Assembly: GCA_034521595.1 (NCBI GenBank)
Contig: JAXHMG010000003.1
Location: 2,336,001-2,400,000, forward strand
Source of the DNA: Gemmatimonadota bacterium
GTDB lineage: Bacteria > Gemmatimonadota > Gemmatimonadetes > Longimicrobiales > Gaopeijiaceae
DNA length: 64,000 bases
Direction of reading: 5' to 3'
Shown here piece after piece: positions 18,781-28,769 of the stretch. Made by a program: the position numbers and the translations under genes. The notes beneath the pieces are model-generated. The model ran no database searches, was not told the DNA's origin, and saw only the letters and a program-made list of their open reading frames with translations. Positions within the stretch are counted from its first letter, which is position 1. The number at the start of each line of letters is the position of its first letter.

Positions 18781-20211
18781 TCAGAGCGATTGCAGGAATG
18801 AGAGCAAGGCTTCACGCTCGCTCGTGGTCATGGACCGGACCGCTTCCCGGGCGGCCTCGGCCTCGCCTCCGTGCCAAAGAACGGCCTCCAAGATCCCGCG
18901 GGCCCGGCCGTCGTGCAGAAGCCGAAATGGGCCATTCACCGTGCGCGTCAGGCCCAGGCCCCAGAGGGGTGGGGTCCGCCACTCCTGGCCGTTCGCTTCG
19001 AAGTCCGAACGTCCGTCCGCGAGTGCCGGGCCCATGTCGTGGAGCAGGAGATCCGTGTACGGATAGATGGTCTGGTTCGAGACCTCGGGCACGCCCTCCA
19101 GGGATCCCGTCTCGAGCCTCGGCACGTGGCACGATGCGCAGCCGGCTTCGACGAAGAGCTCCTCGCCACGCCGAACCTGCGGGGAATCGAGATCTCTCGG
19201 CGCGGGAACAGCCAACGTCTGCACGTAGAAGGTCGCGGCCTCCAACTCCTCGTCGTCCAGCTCCGGGTCGTCGTCCCGGCCGTCGTCTCCCAGGGCGCCC
19301 AGGCTGGCCTCCGACGCGAAGACCGTCGTCGTAACCCCCATGTCTCCCACGTACGCCGCCGCAGTCTGCTGGAGCAGCGTGGGCTGGTTTGCCTTCCAAC
19401 CGAACCGTCCCACGGCGAGTCTCTGGCTGACTTCGTCCCAGACCCGGTTGACCCGGCCCGAGATCCCGTCTCCGTCTCGGTCGTCGGGATCGGCGAGGTC
19501 GAGGAGCGTACGCTCCGGGACTGCCTCCAGGAGCCCGAGTCCGAAGACCGGTCGCGGCATCCTCGGCGATAGATACAGATCTGCCGGCAAAGCCGTGAAG
19601 GGAGCGGCAAGCGTGAAGGTGGGTCGCGTGAGCGTCATCGTCGTGCCGTCCCCCAGCGTCAGGGTCGTATCCCGCTCCTCCACCACCACCCGGGCCTCGA
19701 CGTCGACGCCGATCACGGCCTTGTCCTGGATTTGCAGACCGAATCCTTCGACCGGCACAGGCCCGCCGTGGGGCCCGGTGCCCGGCCGGCTCACGCGAAT
19801 CAACAGACCCGCGAGATCCCGTCCGTCCCGTGTGTGGCAGCGGATGCACGACGCCTGGTTGAACACGGGCCCCAGGCCTGGATTGAGATCGGCCGGCGGA
19901 GTCACGAAGGTCTGCTCGAAGGCGAGGTCCCCGTCGAGGTGCAGATCCAGTCGCTCCCCGACGAGATTGGGCGCGGGCATGGAGAAGGCGAAGCTCGTCG
20001 CATCCACGACCGTGGTCGCCCCACCCGCCCGGCTGCGCTCCCCCTCGCCGCTTGCGCTCCCGTCATCGACCCCAGGGCCCGTGGCATCGGCGCAAGACGA
20101 CAGGAGCGTCATCACAACAGCGACCGCGAGGGTCAATGCAAGAGGCCGACTGGCCGCCTCGCTCACCCGTCCCATCGAACGTCCCCCTGAAGCGCTACGC
20201 TCCTTCGCCAC
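18781..20211 (-). CDS. Di-heme oxidoreductase (DHOR/DUF1111) family lipoprotein
   Basis: CIRCH and CASCH heme motifs, GLGLLEAV, GRFGWKA, DLLLHDMG, EWRTPPLWG, LLHDGRAR; lipobox LSSC. Confidence 0.93.
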   Translation of the reverse strand: MAKERSASGGRSMGRVSEAASRPLALTLAVAVVMTLLSSCADATGPGVDDGSASGEGERSRAGGATTVVDATSFAFSMPAPNLVGERLDLHLDGDLAFEQTFVTPPADLNPGLGPVFNQASCIRCHTRDGRDLAGLLIRVSRPGTGPHGGPVPVEGFGLQIQDKAVIGVDVEARVVVEERDTTLTLGDGTTMTLTRPTFTLAAPFTALPADLYLSPRMPRPVFGLGLLEAVPERTLLDLADPDDRDGDGISGRVNRVWDEVSQRLAVGRFGWKANQPTLLQQTAAAYVGDMGVTTTVFASEASLGALGDDGRDDDPELDDEELEAATFYVQTLAVPAPRDLDSPQVRRGEELFVEAGCASCHVPRLETGSLEGVPEVSNQTIYPYTDLLLHDMGPALADGRSDFEANGQEWRTPPLWGLGLTRTVNGPFRLLHDGRARGILEAVLWHGGEAEAAREAVRSMTTSEREALLSFLQSL

Positions 20212-20230
20212 CCGCTACGTCTCCCTGGCT

Positions 20231-21331
20231 TCAGAGTTCCGACACGGCCGGCGCAATCTCTTCCTCCAGGATCTGGAGGATCTCCCGCACAGCCTCCTGA
20301 GCCGCTTCCGCTTCTGCGGTATGGTCGAAGATTGCATCTCTGAACGGCTCAGGCACAGCCTGGATAGCAGAAATCGCGGCATCGACCTGATCAACGAAGC
20401 GCTGACCGAGGTCGCCGTCAAGATCTCGAATTAGCTCATCGACACCCATGCCCTCGGATCCACCGTAGTCGCCCGTGTAAATGTTGCGGATGCTTTCGAT
20501 ATTGTTCCGGAAGTCGGTCAGCGAGTTACCGCTGAAGCGCGACTCTACGGGAAACACGCTCTGCTGTGCCAACGGATCGTTGATCTTGCCGTTCGCCACC
20601 TCGTCGGCGATCACGATCATCCCGTTCACCAGCTCCTGAACTCCTGCCTTCTCACTCTGCCAGATCGTGCTGCCGTCGCCCGCCGAGGAAAGCTCCGCCG
20701 CGAAGTTGTCACCACCGGGATCCCATGCCGTGTTCAACGCGGTGGCGTCGGCTTCGAGCGCCTGGGTGGCGGCGATGAGGTATTCGAACTCCCGATCGGT
20801 GAAGTCTCCGGGAGCCTTGGATCCGTCCACGCCCCACAGAAGGAACTCGATGGTGTGGAAGCCCTTGAGCGTTCCCTCGAGGCCGGCGACGAATCCCTGA
20901 GTCAACTCCTGGTCACCTTCCAACACCGCCGCTAGGTCGACTTCGTTGACGGGCCAGGAGTCCAAGGCCGGATCCAGCCCCTGTGTGTCCACTGGACCGA
21001 ACAGGAAGCTCTCGGACGACTCCCATGGAACCCGAGTGGCCCGCCAGGCCGATCGGGCGGCCTCGAGATTCGCTTCCGTGGTGGCGTCCCGAAGTGCGAC
21101 GACCGCGTCCAGTAGACCCTCGGACGCAAGGTCCAGATCTGCGTAGGTCGCCAGGATCACATTGTCGGCCTCGTTCTGGAGAATCGGCCGCAGATCAAAG
21201 GCCTCTTCTTCGGGGTCGGGTCCGACCCCGTCGTCCGAGGAACACGCTCCGATTCCGAGCACGCCGATCGCCAAGAGCAGGAGGAAGGGAAGGCGCGAGC
21301 ACGTGTGTCGCAGGGATTCAATCTTTGTCAT
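20231..21331 (-). CDS. Imelysin family (IrpA-like) iron-binding lipoprotein
   Basis: GFHTIEFLLW (GxHxxE), WESSESFLFGP, ESRFSGNS; lipobox IGAC. Confidence 0.92.
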   Translation of the reverse strand: MTKIESLRHTCSRLPFLLLLAIGVLGIGACSSDDGVGPDPEEEAFDLRPILQNEADNVILATYADLDLASEGLLDAVVALRDATTEANLEAARSAWRATRVPWESSESFLFGPVDTQGLDPALDSWPVNEVDLAAVLEGDQELTQGFVAGLEGTLKGFHTIEFLLWGVDGSKAPGDFTDREFEYLIAATQALEADATALNTAWDPGGDNFAAELSSAGDGSTIWQSEKAGVQELVNGMIVIADEVANGKINDPLAQQSVFPVESRFSGNSLTDFRNNIESIRNIYTGDYGGSEGMGVDELIRDLDGDLGQRFVDQVDAAISAIQAVPEPFRDAIFDHTAEAEAAQEAVREILQILEEEIAPAVSEL

Positions 21332-21407
21332 TTGAGTCTCTCTTAGTTCGCTTGCTCAGTGAGTTGTCTGCAGCGGATCTTGTAAAATCGAGTTCAGGGC
21401 GTCGTCG

Positions 21408-22691
21408 CTACCCTCCGTCCGACTCTCCTTCGAAGCCGAACTCGAACCCCAGGCCGATGGAGAACGTCTTCTCCACCTCGTCGGTGCCGAGTTCCCGGTG
21501 AGAGAATTCCGTTTTGAACGTCACCTGCCGAATCAGATGGTAGTTGAGCCCCACGGTGTAGGCGGTACGCTGCCAACGGGGATTGTCGAAGACGTCGCCC
21601 TCCACCTCGGCCATCGAGTCGTAGCGCTCGATGCGTCCGAAGAGGTCCAGGCGCTGATCGGTGGCGTCGGCCAGCGACAGCAGATCGAAGCCTGCTTCCG
21701 CGTAATATCCGGAGGCCGCGCTCCCCACCGGCGTCCGCTTCACGTTGAGGTTGTTGGAGAGATTCCGATTGGCCTGCGACACGTCGTCGGAGTTCTCCAG
21801 CGTTCCGTAAAGCCCGAGGGCCCGGACGGTCCATGGACCACGTTCCAAGGTGGCGTGCACCGAGCCCACGGTGACCGGCGCGTCCACGGCGAGATCCGGC
21901 TTGGGCCGGTTGTCCGTCGTGTTGCCGCGGTAGCCGTCAAGCCCGAGCTCCACCCCGGGGGCGAGCCGGTATTCGAGCCGACCCGCCACGGCCAGGTTCT
22001 CCGCATTCACCGTCTCGAAGCGTGTCTGGTGTCCCCGCACGATCCAGCTGGCCGACGAGAATCCGGTTGCGTCGAGGCCGTTCACCACCGAGAGCGTGTA
22101 TGCCCACCGTTCCGTAGCGCCGAGACTCCCGAACAGCTGGATACCGTTCTCGTACCAATTGGTCGGCACGAGATTGACCTCGGTCTCGGAGCGCGTGGTC
22201 CGGAAGTATTCCCGGGGCTCGTCATGGACCGAGGCGATTCCGAACGGAACCTTCAACCGCCCAACCCTGAGATTGAGCCAGGGCTTCAGGTCGATCCGTA
22301 CGTTGAGCTGCTCGAGCAGGACCTCGCCGCCGGCCTCGACCTCGGTCTCGAATTCGCCAAACTCCTCGAACTTGTCGAACTCCTTCGTGACACCCGTGCC
22401 ACCGTGCTCGAACTCGATCTCGGCGTCCAGCCGGATTCCGTTGCCGAAATCGTAACCGGGATAAAGGACGAGGCGCTCCACATCCATGGCGCTCCGCCGT
22501 TCGGGATCGGTGTCCCAGTCGAAGGCGAAGTAGTTCACCACTCCGTAGCCGCTGAGGGACCAACTCCCCGAGTCGTCCTCTACCGATTCCTGCTGAGCAA
22601 CAATCCCGTCGACCGAAACCGCCAGCCCGAGGACGGCCGCCGCGACCGCCAGTCCGCATACACGTTCCATGGACGACGGGCGGTTGATCAT
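21408..22691 (-). CDS. Outer-membrane porin-like beta-barrel of an iron-uptake operon
   Basis: Signal peptide, AEIEFEHGG motif, alternating beta-strands, first gene downstream of a Fur-like box. Confidence 0.75.
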   Translation of the reverse strand: MINRPSSMERVCGLAVAAAVLGLAVSVDGIVAQQESVEDDSGSWSLSGYGVVNYFAFDWDTDPERRSAMDVERLVLYPGYDFGNGIRLDAEIEFEHGGTGVTKEFDKFEEFGEFETEVEAGGEVLLEQLNVRIDLKPWLNLRVGRLKVPFGIASVHDEPREYFRTTRSETEVNLVPTNWYENGIQLFGSLGATERWAYTLSVVNGLDATGFSSASWIVRGHQTRFETVNAENLAVAGRLEYRLAPGVELGLDGYRGNTTDNRPKPDLAVDAPVTVGSVHATLERGPWTVRALGLYGTLENSDDVSQANRNLSNNLNVKRTPVGSAASGYYAEAGFDLLSLADATDQRLDLFGRIERYDSMAEVEGDVFDNPRWQRTAYTVGLNYHLIRQVTFKTEFSHRELGTDEVEKTFSIGLGFEFGFEGESDGG

Positions 22692-22742: not shown

Positions 22743-22760
22743 AATGAGATCCATTCTCAA
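22743..22760. promoter_or_regulatory. Fur-like box upstream of porin-imelysin-DHOR operon
   Basis: aatgagatccattctcaa (TGAGA-N5-TCTCA inverted repeat) in an AT-rich patch about 50 bp upstream of the 22691 start. Confidence 0.75.
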
Positions 22761-23206
22761 CTATGGCGCCACACTAAGGGCGCCGATCACGACTGTCAAG
22801 GCTACAGGCTCACGGGGTCCTCCACGGGTCGTTCACGTTCTATACGTGAGATATCGAGTGTGCGTATGGCCTCGGATACCGGCTCCTACGACTTCGCCCG
22901 CTCCAAGAGCTCGCCCCTAATGGGAGGACTCGTGCGGGTCTGATGGCCGGGGATGCTCGGGGGCTCGGAGGTGGCGAAGGCTCAGCCGCAGGACCCCATG
23001 GTCGGTCGGAACCGGAGCGAGGCGGAGCTGCCTGAAGGCACACGAGATGATTCGCATCTCACCGTATCGCCGCGTTCGCGTCACGAGCCGGGGTCGGAGA
23101 AGGGATCCTGGAGGAATCCTGCTCCCCTTCTCTGGTCCGGCGCCGCGGCGGGCAAACCGTGCCCGGGGAACTTTGCCGGCTCTCCAAACATTACGAGGCT
23201 GGAGGC

Positions 23207-23578
23207 GTGAACGTTCGGCCGGGAGGCATCATCCACCACCACCGGAGAAGGACCGAGGCGAGCCGCCGGACCCTGGGTACCGTCCTGGCCGGCGCGTACG
23301 TGTTCCTCCTGGTGGGCTTGCCCCTACTCCATCACGCGCCGACCCACGGCGCGCTCTCGGCCGACCACTACCACGTCCCGGACGGGACGGCGAGCCACGA
23401 CCATGCGGGGTGCGTCCTTTTCTGGAACTCACCACCGTCGACGGCAACCGAGATTTCGTCGAAGCTTCCGGCTCCGCCCCCCGAGAGCCGACCGATCCTG
23501 CTGGTCGACGCTCCGCCGACCGCCGGTCGCTCGATCCAGCGGGCTCATCCTCCCCGAGCGCCGCCGCGCATCTCCTGA
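23207..23578 (+). CDS. DUF2946/CruR-like His-rich leader protein with C-terminal RAPP arrest motif
   Basis: Basic N-terminus plus hydrophobic segment, His cluster HHAPTH..HYH..HDHAGC, Pro-rich linker, ends PPRAPPRIS; directly upstream of a TonB receptor. Start codon uncertain. Confidence 0.75.
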   Translation: MNVRPGGIIHHHRRRTEASRRTLGTVLAGAYVFLLVGLPLLHHAPTHGALSADHYHVPDGTASHDHAGCVLFWNSPPSTATEISSKLPAPPPESRPILLVDAPPTAGRSIQRAHPPRAPPRIS

Positions 23579-23674
23579 CCCGGACCCGACCGACCGTCAC
23601 CTGACGGGGCGCCGCCGCGCTGGGCTTCGAGCCCGGCCGCAGCGCATCCCACCGTCCGTATACAGGAGAGATGC

Positions 23675-26122
23675 ATGAAGCCCTTCGCCATTCGCAACGG
23701 GGGGTGGGCGTGCGCCGCCCATCTCCCGACGACCCTCGCGCTCGTCCTCGTCGTCGCGGCATCCGTCTTCGTAGCCCCCGCCACTGCCCAGGACCGCGAA
23801 CAGCCCGGCGGGACCCTCATCGGAACCGTCACCTCGGAAGGGGGCCAGCCCCTGGGACAGGCGGACGTCCACGTTCCGGCCCTCGGCCGACAGGCCTTGA
23901 CCGACGCCCGGGGCAGCTTCCGGATGACGAACGTGCAGCCGCGCACCGTGCGCGTGCGCTTCGACCGCATCGGCTACGAATCGGCGGTCCGGGAGGTGAC
24001 GGTCTCGGCCGGCGAGGTCACCCGGGTCGAGGTGACGATGCAGACCCGGCCGATCGAGCGCGAGGAGATCGTGGTGACGGGCACGCCCAGTGCGGCGAAC
24101 CCCATGGAGACGACCCAGGACGTGGACGCGGTGGCGGCCCCGGAGCTGGCCCGCTCGCGGAGCGCCTCCCTGGGCAAGGTTCTGGAGGAGCAGGTGCCCG
24201 GGGTGGCCAACATCAGCACCGGCTCGCAGGCGGGCAAGCCCGTTCTCCGGGGCCTGAGCGGCACCCGGGTGCGCACCCTCCAGAACGGCATCGCCCAGGA
24301 CTTCTTCCAGTACGGAGTTCGCCACGCCACGCCCACCTCCCTGGCCCAGGTCGAGCGCGTCGAAGTGGTGCGGGGAGCCTCGAGCATCCTCTACGGCTCC
24401 GACGCCCTTGGTGGGGCGGTGAATATGATCACCAAGGACCTGCCTAGCGCTCCCGAGGGCCAGACCCGGATCGGAGGTGATGTCGAGGGGCAGTTCTTCT
24501 CCAACAACGAAGAGCGGGCCGGGCTCGTGGATCTCCACGCCGCCGGCGACCGCTTCGGCGCGCGGGCCGGGGTCGAGGTCCGGAAGGGTGACGACCTGAA
24601 GACGCCCGAGGCGCCCACCTTCTTCCGCGACGATCCGCGGACCGGAGTGGGCGGCGACCCGAAGTACGCCGGCGAGGTGCCCTTCACCAACTTCGAGCAA
24701 TGGTCCGTGTACGGACAAGCCGGGCTCCGGGGCGACTTCGGCAAGGCCGAGCTCTTCATGAACCACTGGTCGAACCGGCAGAACTTCCTCCTCCCCATGG
24801 GGGGGCCGGTGGGCAGCGAGGATAACCCGCCGGTGGGGCTCGGGCAGGAGTTGGGCCAGACCAACGTCGCACTCTCGGGCAACCTGGCCAGCGGGGGGGT
24901 CGTGCTGAAACCCACGCTGAGCTTCCAGCGCGCCACCCGGCAGGCGGCCACGCCGGGCGCCACCTTCGAGGCGGATCCGGACTTCCCCGTCGACCTGGCC
25001 AAGAACTCCTACACGGCGCGCTTCGAGCTCCTGCACCCGACCGTGGCCTCGCTGGACGGCACCCTGGGTGCGGAGGTCAACTACCAGGACACCGAACAGC
25101 GGGGCCCGGTGGAGTTGGAGCCGTCCTCGGAGATCCTGAACGCGGCGGTCTTCGCCTTCGAGGAGCTGGGGCTTGGCGACCTGACCCTGTCGGCGGGAGT
25201 CCGCCTCGACGTGCGCGACCAGGAGGCGGTGCCCAACGATCGCACGACCGACCCGGAGTTGCTCGAATCTACCTTCACCGAGGTCTCCGGAGGCCTGGGC
25301 TTCAACTACGAGCTGGTGGACGGTCTGGCGCTAGCCGGCAACGCGAACAGCGGCTTCCGGGCGCCGGCCATCTTCGAGCTCTATGCCAACGGGGTGCACG
25401 GGGGCGTGGCGGCCTTCCAGCGCGGGAGCCCGGAGCTCGACTCCGAGCGCTCCTTCAGCGGCGACCTGGCGCTCCGGGCCCGCACCGGACGGGTGTCGGG
25501 CAAGGTCACAGGCTACGTGAACCAGATCCAGGACTTCGTCTTTTTGGAGAACACGGGCGAGCGGAGGGAATCCGACGGTCTGCCCATCTTCTCCTCGGGG
25601 CAGACCGACGCCACCATCCGCGGGGTCGAGGGCAACGTGGAGGTGTCCACCTTCGGCGGGATCGACGTGGGCGGGAGCTTCTCGTTCCTGGACCACGAGG
25701 GCGACGGCCTTTCCGATCCCGAGGGCGGCGACGAGGACGGCCCACTTCCCCTCATCCCGGCCGACCGGCTCTCGGGCTTCGTGCGAGCCACCGCTTCGGC
25801 ACTGGGTCCTCTGAGCTCGCCCCGGCTCCGCTTCGACGTCCGGCACGGCTTCTCCAAGGACGCCGCCGGCCGCATCGAGCCCTTCTCTCAGTTCGACGAC
25901 CTCCCCTTCGGCACCGCCTCCACCGACGCCTACACTCTCTTCGACGTCGAAGGGTCGGCCACTCTGGAAATGGGCGAGGTTCCCGTCTCGCTGAGCCTGG
26001 CGGTGGAGAACCTGTCCGACGAGGTGTACCGGCAGTTCCTGGACACCTACAAGGGTTACGCGCTGTCGCCGGGCCGCAACGTGAAGCTCACCGTCAGCGC
26101 CCCTTTTCACGTGCTGCGATAG
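23675..26122 (+). CDS. TonB-dependent receptor, probable transition-metal (ZnuD-like) uptake
   Basis: GKPVLRGLSGTRV, VEVVRGASSILYGSDALGGAVN, FRAPAIFELYANGVH, PGRNVKLTV; RBS AGGAG. Confidence 0.9.
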   Translation: MKPFAIRNGGWACAAHLPTTLALVLVVAASVFVAPATAQDREQPGGTLIGTVTSEGGQPLGQADVHVPALGRQALTDARGSFRMTNVQPRTVRVRFDRIGYESAVREVTVSAGEVTRVEVTMQTRPIEREEIVVTGTPSAANPMETTQDVDAVAAPELARSRSASLGKVLEEQVPGVANISTGSQAGKPVLRGLSGTRVRTLQNGIAQDFFQYGVRHATPTSLAQVERVEVVRGASSILYGSDALGGAVNMITKDLPSAPEGQTRIGGDVEGQFFSNNEERAGLVDLHAAGDRFGARAGVEVRKGDDLKTPEAPTFFRDDPRTGVGGDPKYAGEVPFTNFEQWSVYGQAGLRGDFGKAELFMNHWSNRQNFLLPMGGPVGSEDNPPVGLGQELGQTNVALSGNLASGGVVLKPTLSFQRATRQAATPGATFEADPDFPVDLAKNSYTARFELLHPTVASLDGTLGAEVNYQDTEQRGPVELEPSSEILNAAVFAFEELGLGDLTLSAGVRLDVRDQEAVPNDRTTDPELLESTFTEVSGGLGFNYELVDGLALAGNANSGFRAPAIFELYANGVHGGVAAFQRGSPELDSERSFSGDLALRARTGRVSGKVTGYVNQIQDFVFLENTGERRESDGLPIFSSGQTDATIRGVEGNVEVSTFGGIDVGGSFSFLDHEGDGLSDPEGGDEDGPLPLIPADRLSGFVRATASALGPLSSPRLRFDVRHGFSKDAAGRIEPFSQFDDLPFGTASTDAYTLFDVEGSATLEMGEVPVSLSLAVENLSDEVYRQFLDTYKGYALSPGRNVKLTVSAPFHVLR

Positions 26123-26166: not shown

Positions 26167-26580
26167 ATGACTAGACACCGTCAGCGAATGGCCATCGCGA
26201 GCCTGGCGGTCGCCACCGCACTGCTCGCGACCGCGTGCGATCGCGGCCCCGGACCGCAGAGCATGGAGGTCACCGCGACCGCGTACACCATGCGGGAGGC
26301 GGAAACCAAGCAGGGCAACATCGGACTCGCCGCCTGGGGCGACCAGTTGGAACCGGGCATGAAGTCGATCGCCGTTTCGCGCGATCTCATCGACGAAGGC
26401 CTCGATCACATGACGGAGGTGCGAATCGAAGGACTCGAGGGCACGTACATCGTGCGTGACAAGATGAACGAGCGCTGGGAGAAGAAGATCGACATCTTCA
26501 TGGGCACCGACGTGGAGGCCGCGCGCGAGTGGGGCGAACGCCAGGTCACCATCCATTGGATCAACCCACCCGACCAGTAA
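26167..26580 (+). CDS. 3D domain-containing lipoprotein
   Basis: Lipobox ATAC; VTATAY, IAVSRDL, VRDKM, KIDIFM. Confidence 0.85.
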   Translation: MTRHRQRMAIASLAVATALLATACDRGPGPQSMEVTATAYTMREAETKQGNIGLAAWGDQLEPGMKSIAVSRDLIDEGLDHMTEVRIEGLEGTYIVRDKMNERWEKKIDIFMGTDVEAAREWGERQVTIHWINPPDQ

Positions 26581-26652: not shown

Positions 26653-28662
<2,010 letters not shown>

Positions 28663-28769
28663 ACTTGCAAGGTAGGACGCCGGCGACGCGTGAGAAACCC
28701 CCCGACCGGTCCACCATTGAGATCGGGTGGCCGTCCCCGCGACGACCGTGCGCTACTGGGATGGGCGCG

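Follow-up and report, generated by a model that had tools for sequence, protein, structure and literature searches.

A predicted arrest-peptide leader with a single-cysteine, histidine-rich motif and a putative Shine–Dalgarno mask ahead of a TonB-dependent receptor gene in a Gemmatimonadota bacterium

The DNA analyzed here is a stretch of 64,000 nucleotides from contig JAXHMG010000003.1 of the Gemmatimonadota assembly GCA_034521595.1, called the window in what follows. It carries a small open reading frame (ORF) of 123 codons directly ahead of a gene for a TonB-dependent receptor. The ORF is a real, conserved gene. Judged by its sequence, it is an arrest-peptide leader with an altered sensor motif and a predicted mask over the receptor gene's Shine–Dalgarno (SD) sequence, and a divergent relative of the CruR and CutF leaders rather than a new kind of system. 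The pairing between the end of the leader and the SD of the following gene exists, and it covaries between lineages. We assign a probability of roughly 0.55 to the full reading, in which the leader would belong to the CruR/CutF class of nascent-chain metal sensors, be exported during its own translation and gate the receptor through a ribosome stall and an SD-masking helix.

As called, the leader begins with a GTG and occupies 23207–23578 of the forward strand; the stored gene-caller protein (P0001) is identical to it, and another in-frame GTG is available at 23159. Its translation reads MNVRPGGIIHHHRRR...LGTVLAGAYVFLLVGLPLL...HDHAGCVLF...RAPPRIS, with the TGA stop at 23576–23578. The N terminus is basic, with an HHHRRR...RR stretch ahead of a hydrophobic segment of 19 residues (residues 23–41, 23273–23329). 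This segment is the highest-scoring Kyte–Doolittle 19-mer (2.15) and aligns with a signal-peptide-like segment of the protein family described below, so that an N-terminal export signal is predicted. It is followed by a His-rich, putatively metal-sensing stretch (23330–23413) ending in HDHAGC, in which Cys69 (codon 23411–23413) is the only cysteine of the protein. A Pro/Ala-rich linker then leads to the candidate stall codons CGA GCG CCG CCG (23555–23566), encoding RAPP. Arg117 of this motif lies 48 residues past Cys69, and three sense codons and the stop come after it. The intergenic region measures 96 nt (23579–23674); it is C-rich and G-poor at its 5′ end and folds with internal hairpins. 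The receptor ATG is at 23675, with AGGAG at 23664–23668, 6 nt ahead of it. The sequence statements and coordinates given in an initial annotation made from the sequence alone were checked against the sequence, and all of them are correct. The leader's own SD, GGAGG in the stretch 23201–23209, stands only 1 nt before the GTG, which is unusually close. An 85-codon ORF at 22953–23210, whose TGA overlaps the leader GTG as GTGA, was considered as a gene and rejected, its composition being non-coding-like (0.66/0.60/0.73).

Neither an open frame nor a RAPP motif is evidence by itself, because both are cheap in this genome, where the GC content is 67% over the whole 64-kb window. Two alternative frames across the leader DNA are open as well, with codon-position GC of 0.76/0.71/0.60 and 0.70/0.82/0.61. 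RAPP falls within the last 9 residues in 52 of the 32,284 open frames of at least 60 aa in the genome, and permuted motifs do so 44–58 times. The leader frame itself has codon-position GC of 0.70/0.58/0.82 (0.74/0.49/0.91 in its first half), and the long genes of the window have 0.68/0.49/0.84. Searches with the single protein return little. A word-indexed search found the leader alone (1 of 30 candidates), and the matches in 60 related genomes are weak and inside long unrelated frames, the best at 2.4e-4, which we take as noise. A phmmer search of 1.84 billion representative sequences gave one true relative, P0005 (116 aa, E 6.1e-4), which is 40% identical to the leader in a pairwise BLASTP comparison (E 3e-11); P0002 to P0004, also matched, are long repetitive proteins and were dropped. 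We regard the leader gene as real because of its coding-like composition, the family derived from P0005, and the residues that are invariant in the 68 aligned sequences of that family.

A profile search seeded through P0005 yields 70 proteins at E ≤ 1e-3, with E-values that are not independent, as the window sequence is itself part of the profile. All are unnamed or called 'hypothetical protein', none has a precomputed Pfam domain, and the named matches are from Opitutaceae, Rariglobus or Opitutus. Alignment A2 holds 68 sequences, leaving out P0068, a fragment without the C terminus, and the weak P0073. H47, C69, P119 and P120 are invariant in it, and all four are present in the leader; the strings HDDxGCAVTLF and PxRGPP are nearly so. 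Motifs and spacings were counted on 65 sequences, P0042, P0048 and P0050 being unmatched by the motif pattern. RGPP is the terminal motif of 54 sequences, CGPP of 9 and RAPP of 2. In 61, exactly three residues separate the motif from the stop, and the distance from Cys to Arg is 49 in 59 sequences, 50 in 4 and 48 in 2, the window leader being one of the last. The leader and the rest of the family share one plan: a signal-like segment, a His run, HD[DH]xGC, about 49 residues, PxR[GA]PP, three residues, the stop, and then a TonB receptor. The leader is the most divergent member, at 21–34% identity, and differs in having RAPP rather than RGPP, in having one residue fewer after the Cys, and in belonging to another phylum. 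Lack of conservation had been named at the outset as grounds for abandoning the leader, and what is found is that the 68 aligned relatives keep the Cys, the two prolines and the spacing. In 301 genomes of the leader's own phylum, the family profile finds this genome only and one weak match with a stop codon. The leader model in the Atlas is poorly ordered, with a predicted local distance difference test (pLDDT) score of 0.56, and all of its structure matches are below a template-modelling (TM) score of 0.5 on that low-confidence model.

The gene that follows is also retained in the family. Family members occur at 13 metagenome loci; a long same-strand ORF lies directly downstream in 8, and Plug and/or TonB barrel domains were found in the downstream gene at 7 of the 7 loci scanned (L036 duplicates L035, four loci were too short, and a small downstream ORF in L039 was left out). 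The sole locus from the genome-contig scan, L033, proved to be inside a larger unrelated frame and is a false positive. In the window, the receptor gene (23675–26122, forward strand) encodes 815 aa with Pfam matches to Plug (7e-20), the barrel (8.7e-34) and an N-terminal CarboxypepD_reg domain (6.2e-15). No close orthologue of it was found in 40 relatives (at most 32% identity, in a tally that includes the unpublished genome G037), and for this reason synteny in close kin is unusable. The original description of this locus as an exported CruR-like leader with a terminal stall motif ahead of a TonB receptor is supported by the family and by the synteny at the seven loci.

Kinship to DUF2946 (PF11162), the family of CruR, is remote. 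The leader scores 12.4 bits (E 0.28) against the PF11162 hidden Markov model (HMM), under the gathering cut-off of 23.7 bits, and is absent from a whole-genome PF11162 search at E ≤ 10; the suggestion that it might be assigned to DUF2946 in this way did not hold. There is also no CxxC in the leader, only the single Cys of HDHAGCVLF. As two defining features of DUF2946, an HMM score above the cut-off and the CxxC, are missing, we do not file the leader as a DUF2946 member. Weak PF11162 matches do occur in 48 of the 68 family members (best E 1.3e-4), and these are in register with RAPP, because they end at the last profile position in 6 of the 6 member matches for which coordinates were returned. 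A PF11162 search of the same order and one of its families gave 28 loci, 17 of them with RAPP in the last 14 residues. For comparison we used 14 canonical leaders of the same order, of the form HDxxxCVxCH...RAPP plus 2 or 3 residues. Against these 14, hhalign gives the family a probability of 64% (E 6.6e-5) and the window leader 75% (E 2.5e-5). HDHAGCV of the leader is aligned on HDExHCV of the canonical leaders (HCVxCH), with Phe in the position of the second Cys. Therefore, C69 corresponds to the first Cys of the CxxC with a Phe in the second place, and the replacement of CxxC by CxxF proposed initially is right. The distance from the first Cys to the Arg is 47–49 in the canonical leaders and 48 in the window leader, and RAPP is followed by 2 or 3 residues in the former and by 3 in the latter. 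The leader is like CruR in its C-terminal RAPP, its Cys–RAPP spacing and its same-strand TonB receptor behind a 96-nt intergenic region. These sequence comparisons make it a remote homologue of the CruR/CutF leaders with the same predicted type of design.

CruR is a DUF2946 leader with RAPP and CxxC that exerts Rho-dependent control over a TonB transporter; its CxxC is at 90–93 and its RAPP at 139–142, three residues before the end, with 49 residues from C90 to R139 (PMC9426467). Ribosomes are arrested by RAPP and by RGPP, the toeprint of the CruR stall shows the two Pro codons occupying the P and A sites, and small ORFs with RAPP or RGPP are reported upstream of TonB-related genes throughout Gram-negative bacteria (PMC12992588). 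For CrtA receptors, cruR is first in more than 40% of operons (PMC12914433). Like CruR of Bordetella pertussis (BP2923, in cruR-crtA(bfrG)-bp2921), the window leader is a small exported first ORF with RAPP three residues before the stop, followed by a long GC-rich intergenic region and then a TonB-dependent transporter gene. Unlike CruR, it lacks the CxxC (CVLF, with a single Cys), has many more His and scores below the Pfam cut-off. A PepSY_TM gene is not next after the receptor, and the best solved match of the receptor is ZnuD and not a copper transporter. The output of CruR runs through Rho, whereas an SD-masking helix is predicted for the window leader.

In that respect, the leader resembles CutF of Rhodobacter capsulatus (cutFOG), an exported nascent metal sensor with a C-terminal stall and an SD-shielding stem-loop, the anti-SD of which was mutated experimentally; in the window these features are predicted (PMC9973294; bioRxiv 10.1101/2025.02.05.636593). 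CutF has a CxxxC motif, an elongation factor P-dependent PPP stall and a multicopper oxidase as its target, and it is switched on by copper, whereas the window leader has RAPP and an importer as its target. Unlike that of CutF, the window anti-SD consists of the final codons of the leader together with its stop. The same work on CutF describes 2,540 CutF-like proteins in 29 clusters, with TonB-like neighbours and motifs containing Cys, His or both, and proposes non-copper metals. The single-Cys family might already be represented among the cluster logos supplementing PMC9973294. ApdA, ApdP, ApcA and SecM (RAGP) are likewise small secretory or membrane proteins, encoded upstream of a regulated gene, with an R-[AG]-P-P core close to the C terminus (PMC12992588). 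The experimentally studied RAPP/RGPP peptides monitor protein export and regulate sec or yidC, whereas the leader precedes a receptor gene and contains a His/Cys motif that is conserved and held at a constant distance. All the concepts involved have already been published between 2022 and 2025 (PMC9426467, PMC9973294, PMC12992588, bioRxiv 10.1101/2025.02.05.636593).

The pairing itself joins the sequence gcatctcctg at 23568–23577 to its partner caggagagatgc at 23663–23674. The minimum free energy (MFE) fold pairs UCUCCUG (23571–23577) with CAGGAGA (23663–23669), so the proposed helix between the receptor SD and the 3′ end of the leader is supported in silico. In RNAduplex, the anti-SD strand (23566–23585: the last codons, the TGA stop and 7 nt past it, with UCUCCUG as its core) and the SD strand (23654–23674: GUCCG, CAGGAGA with the AGGAG core, and UGC, abutting the receptor ATG) form 3+7+5 pairs at −23.5 kcal/mol. 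An alternative 7-bp register from the same program, GCAUCUC:GAGAUGC, abuts the receptor start codon. The partition function leaves the GGAG core unpaired with a probability of 0.02 and pairs it to the ORF-end region with 0.98. Among 926 control windows from the locus, 2.8% show a Watson–Crick run of at least 7, and the 161-nt fold of the locus has z = −1.44. Taken on its own, the pairing at this locus is borderline; its support comes from the relatives.

The pairing tests in relatives were made on 17 RAPP loci, L053 having been dropped because it has no assignable downstream start. Downstream starts were assigned by eye from the SD and the signal peptide. At eight loci with canonical leaders before CarboxypepD_reg receptors, the sequence around the SD is CCGGA(U)(U)UCAGGAG and lines up with UCCGUAUACAGGAG of the window. 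Within each of the eight, this receptor SD region is complementary to the leader's last codon, its UGA stop and the bases just past it, in runs of 7, 6, 8, 12, 10, 6, 9 and 8 bp. The length of the A-run after the stop is matched by the U-run before UCAGG in three states, namely UGA-UCC:GGA-UCA, UGA-AUCC:GGAU-UCA and UGA-AAUCC:GGAUU-UCA, with an unmatched base in three loci. Other lineages pair other words, such as GGUCUGAUC:GAUCAGACC and CUCCUCG:CGAGGAG. Over the 17 loci, the longest Watson–Crick run averages 7.18 for cognate pairs and 5.29 for swapped ones, and 0 of 20,000 permutations reach the cognate value. Tested against its own background, the run length is at or below the 5% level in 8 of the 17. 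By the runs and by the comparison of cognate with swapped pairs, the relatives show the anti-SD with an embedded stop codon too. In the Opitutaceae branch, which is without an SD, the RGP codons GCGGAC face GUCCGC 10–20 nt before the ATG in the folds.

We propose that these elements would work together in the following way. A ribosome on the leader would stall while its P site holds Arg-Ala-Pro and its A site the second Pro codon. It would then cover the last codons and stop (23566–23577), which are otherwise paired with the SD region (23654–23674). While it remained there, the SD would be free and the TonB receptor would be translated; the stalled ribosome would possibly also keep Rho off the C-rich RNA. 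Binding of the cognate metal to the His-rich/HDHAGC stretch, at its fixed distance of 48–49 residues from the stall site, would release the arrest. The ribosome would terminate, the helix would re-form and the receptor would be shut off. A bacterial ribosome shields roughly 12–15 nt 3′ of the P-site codon. With the Pro codons 23561–23566 in the P and A sites, the footprint would reach about 23573–23576 and thus take in most of UCUCCUG, and the conserved two or three codons between the prolines and the stop would place the stop-codon anti-SD at the leading edge of the ribosome. The stall, the footprint, the polarity (metal releasing the stall) and the identity of the metal are all things that we infer. 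That the leader switches the receptor on and off in response to a metal is probable.

Several results weigh against this proposal. First, it is doubtful where the leader really starts and how strongly it is translated, because its GGAGG lies 1 nt from the GTG. Second, the duplex energy of the window pairing is unremarkable, with 7.3% of 662 control windows as good, and the energy control reaches the 5% level in only 2 of the 17 loci in the relatives; GC-rich controls pair well with any sequence. Third, the tests on relatives overstate independence, because the starts were chosen by eye and the loci are related. For the eight closest loci, the cognate mean of 8.25 and the swapped mean of 7.09 are not significantly different, 1,579 of 20,000 permutations being as good, and RNAalifold on a 9-sequence MAFFT alignment did not recover the long-range helix. 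The covariation looked for between anti-SD and SD is present in the matched changes and in the excess of cognate over swapped runs across the 17 loci; it is missing from RNAalifold, and the excess is not significant within the eight closest loci. The Opitutaceae branch gives a weak statistic for the pairing, with 2 of 6 loci at or below the 5% level, and those two are near-identical. Finally, masking the RNA as a stalled ribosome would (P site −15 to +15) raises the unpaired probability of the initiation region by at least 0.15 in 5 of 23 loci, compared with 2 of 23 for the control mask, and the SD core in the relatives gives a mixed response. At the window locus, under equilibrium folding, the stall mask raises the unpaired probability of GGAG from 0.02 to 0.25 and the control mask to 0.05. 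The opening of the SD by a stalled ribosome, as first envisaged, therefore appears as a modest rise in the window and is inconsistent in the relatives.

CruR had been cited initially as a RAPP leader that controls a TonB transporter; its published mechanism is Rho-dependent termination, and SD masking is that of CutF (PMC9426467, PMC9973294). This brings in the strongest alternative, which we rate as a real but clearly less probable possibility. The leader and the stall would be the same and the output would be transcriptional, as in CruR: the stall would block Rho, its release would lead to termination before the receptor, and the SD helix would be auxiliary or incidental. Being the published mechanism of the sole experimentally dissected receptor-linked member, CruR (PMC9426467), it counts against an SD switch, as do the weak energy-based and masking tests. 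Rho would load on the C-rich 3′ half of the ORF and the intergenic region. C exceeds G from about 23420 to 23660, with a GC skew of −0.18 to −0.26, although such a stretch is unremarkable in a genome of 67% GC and a rut (Rho utilization) site is not callable from sequence. The 96-nt intergenic region is long and no intrinsic terminator was found in it, and the genome encodes Rho (637 bits). On the other side, the predicted pairing of the SD with the ORF end is 98%, and cognate complementarity across lineages with matched indels would be unexpected if only Rho access mattered. Rho control and SD masking are not mutually exclusive.

The polarity could also be that of CutF, with the leader and the SD helix unchanged: metal binding would prolong the stall, and the metal or a metal chelate would have to be there for the receptor to be synthesized. 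CutF, with its SD-shielding stem-loop, works in this manner (PMC9973294; bioRxiv 10.1101/2025.02.05.636593), and nothing in the sequence fixes the polarity. We still hold this to be improbable, as the gene under control encodes an importer, cargo usually represses its own uptake receptor, and the receptor-linked CruR has the opposite polarity (PMC9426467). A little less probable again is that the leader product is a mature small exported or membrane-anchored metal-binding protein, such as a partner or chaperone of the receptor, with a non-regulatory RAPP tail. The export signal and the conserved His/Cys motif would suit such a protein, and a partnership of neighbouring genes would also explain the synteny. 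However, what is most conserved is the terminal R[GA]PP, the exact three residues and the fixed distance of 49, which fit a ribosome-tunnel ruler rather than a folded domain; the Atlas model shows poor order, and mature CruR and CutF are described as undetectable (PMC9426467, PMC9973294). That the leader is a chance open frame in GC-rich non-coding DNA, with a coincidental RAPP and pairing, is very improbable: terminal RAPP is as common as its permutations, other frames are open too, and the single protein has no relative in 60 related genomes and the profile one weak stop-containing match in the phylum, but the frame has coding-like third-position GC, homologues in another phylum that have invariant residues and a fixed spacing and precede the same gene, and a paralogue in the same genome.

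That paralogue is a second RAPP leader, on contig C2 (L077:2018-2383, reverse strand), with 122 codons, the sequence HHDHAFCQLV...GPRAPPAR-stop and no Pfam match. BLASTP aligns it with the window leader over the span from Cys to RAPP (E 0.001). Some 150 nt downstream of it another CarboxypepD_reg TonB receptor begins, and in the MFE fold the stretch ahead of that receptor's ATG is paired with the last codons of this second leader. No motif of at least 12 nt is common to the regions upstream of the two leaders. A third leader of the genome, on contig C3 (L031:1501-1872, reverse strand), is PF11162-positive at 30 bits, with a single Cys in DHCTHVHG. It stands before a TolC/CzcC-like gene and ends in HPPRA-stop, not RAPPxx(x)-stop. 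The PPRA-stop ending recurs in two other genomes (L067, L070) and may be a different stall or termination motif. In the same order, L049 and L066 are DUF2946 leaders that are very His-rich, with a single Cys (SLHDEC) and RAPPLV-stop, upstream of TolC-like efflux genes; since they precede such genes, single-Cys His-rich variants also head efflux systems.

As to which metal is sensed, and to the non-copper sensing suggested initially, the hints conflict, because at the Opitutaceae loci a CusF_Ec protein is encoded upstream of the leader and a ZnuD-like receptor behind it. The receptors behind the Opitutaceae leaders match NCBIfam NF038289 with 347 and 397 bits, by far their top model and under its 950-bit cut-off. 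The match to ZnuD in the PDB has 221 bits for the L035 receptor and 69 bits for the window receptor, which is weak and is the closest solved structure. The window receptor scores best on general haem/haemoglobin receptor models (165 bits, with a cut-off of 317). For zinc speak the ZnuD-like receptors, the loss of the CxxC and the abundant His. For copper speak the two studied relatives, CruR and CutF, which both sense copper, and the CusF_Ec domain upstream. DUF2946 genes are listed among the differentially expressed genes in a Caulobacter zur study (PMC4176598). His clusters were seen in none of the receptors examined. Since the Opitutaceae receptors are ZnuD-like, zinc is the most likely non-copper candidate. 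We offer as a tentative idea, with the odds against it, that the single-Cys His-rich R[GA]PP leaders sense a non-copper metal, most likely zinc, and gate the translation of an importer through an anti-SD made of the last codon and the stop. Among the papers listed in the literature searches there was none on a zinc-responsive arrest peptide or a ZnuD leader, which is not proof of absence. The CusF_Ec protein (386–496 aa, the domain being C-terminal) is encoded at L035:2781-3938 and L041:2422-3909, immediately before the Opitutaceae leader and in its orientation.

The surroundings of the leader and receptor were also examined. Neither a sigma-70-like promoter nor an intrinsic terminator was found at the locus, and there is no terminator-like site between leader and receptor. 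Rfam gave a chance-level lncRNA (long non-coding RNA) match only for the intergenic region (E 0.026, far below the gathering score). The C-terminal end of the receptor (26087–26122) reads ...SAPFHVLR and is without the terminal aromatic residue that most TonB receptors have. The forward-strand gene at 26167–26580, which starts 44 nt past the receptor stop, encodes a small protein with a 3D domain and an N terminus like that of a lipoprotein (...LLATAC); it may belong to the same operon, at the place of the PepSY_TM gene in CruR operons. On the other side of the leader, the reverse strand carries a divergent operon at 18781–22691 with a BBP2/OmpL-like porin, an imelysin (Peptidase_M75) and a dihaem oxidoreductase (DHOR), a typical trio associated with metal uptake. 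The only AT-rich stretch between this operon and the leader contains an imperfect 7-1-7 palindrome, TGAGATC-C-ATTCTCA (22745–22759), which we take to resemble a Fur-family operator. No regulon can be inferred from the palindrome TGAGA-N5-TCTCA because it is unique in the genome. A thiamine pyrophosphate (TPP) riboswitch at 28566–28665 on the reverse strand (59.9 bits, over the gathering score) lies upstream of thiC, whose true start must be further downstream because the longest ORF call (TTG at 28617) runs into the riboswitch.

The sensor motif of the leader differs from the CxxC of CruR, yet the 49-residue ruler between sensor and stall is kept. This argues for a constraint on the distance rather than on what the second Cys contributes chemically. 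The locus suggests that receptor-linked leaders can use a CutF-type SD mask with the stop codon inside it, besides Rho. The family of single-Cys leaders is well delimited yet uncaptured by Pfam, with all of its roughly 68 clusters labelled hypothetical, and the second and third leaders of the genome are likewise recognized only in part. In annotation, such leaders are missed or called hypothetical, and the regulation of receptors is then wrongly credited to transcription factors alone. If the metal were zinc or another non-copper ion, nascent-chain metal sensing would be broadened beyond copper. If the idea of zinc sensing were true, these leaders would include the first zinc-responsive ribosome arrest peptide and would provide a Zur-independent control of zinc acquisition at the level of translation.

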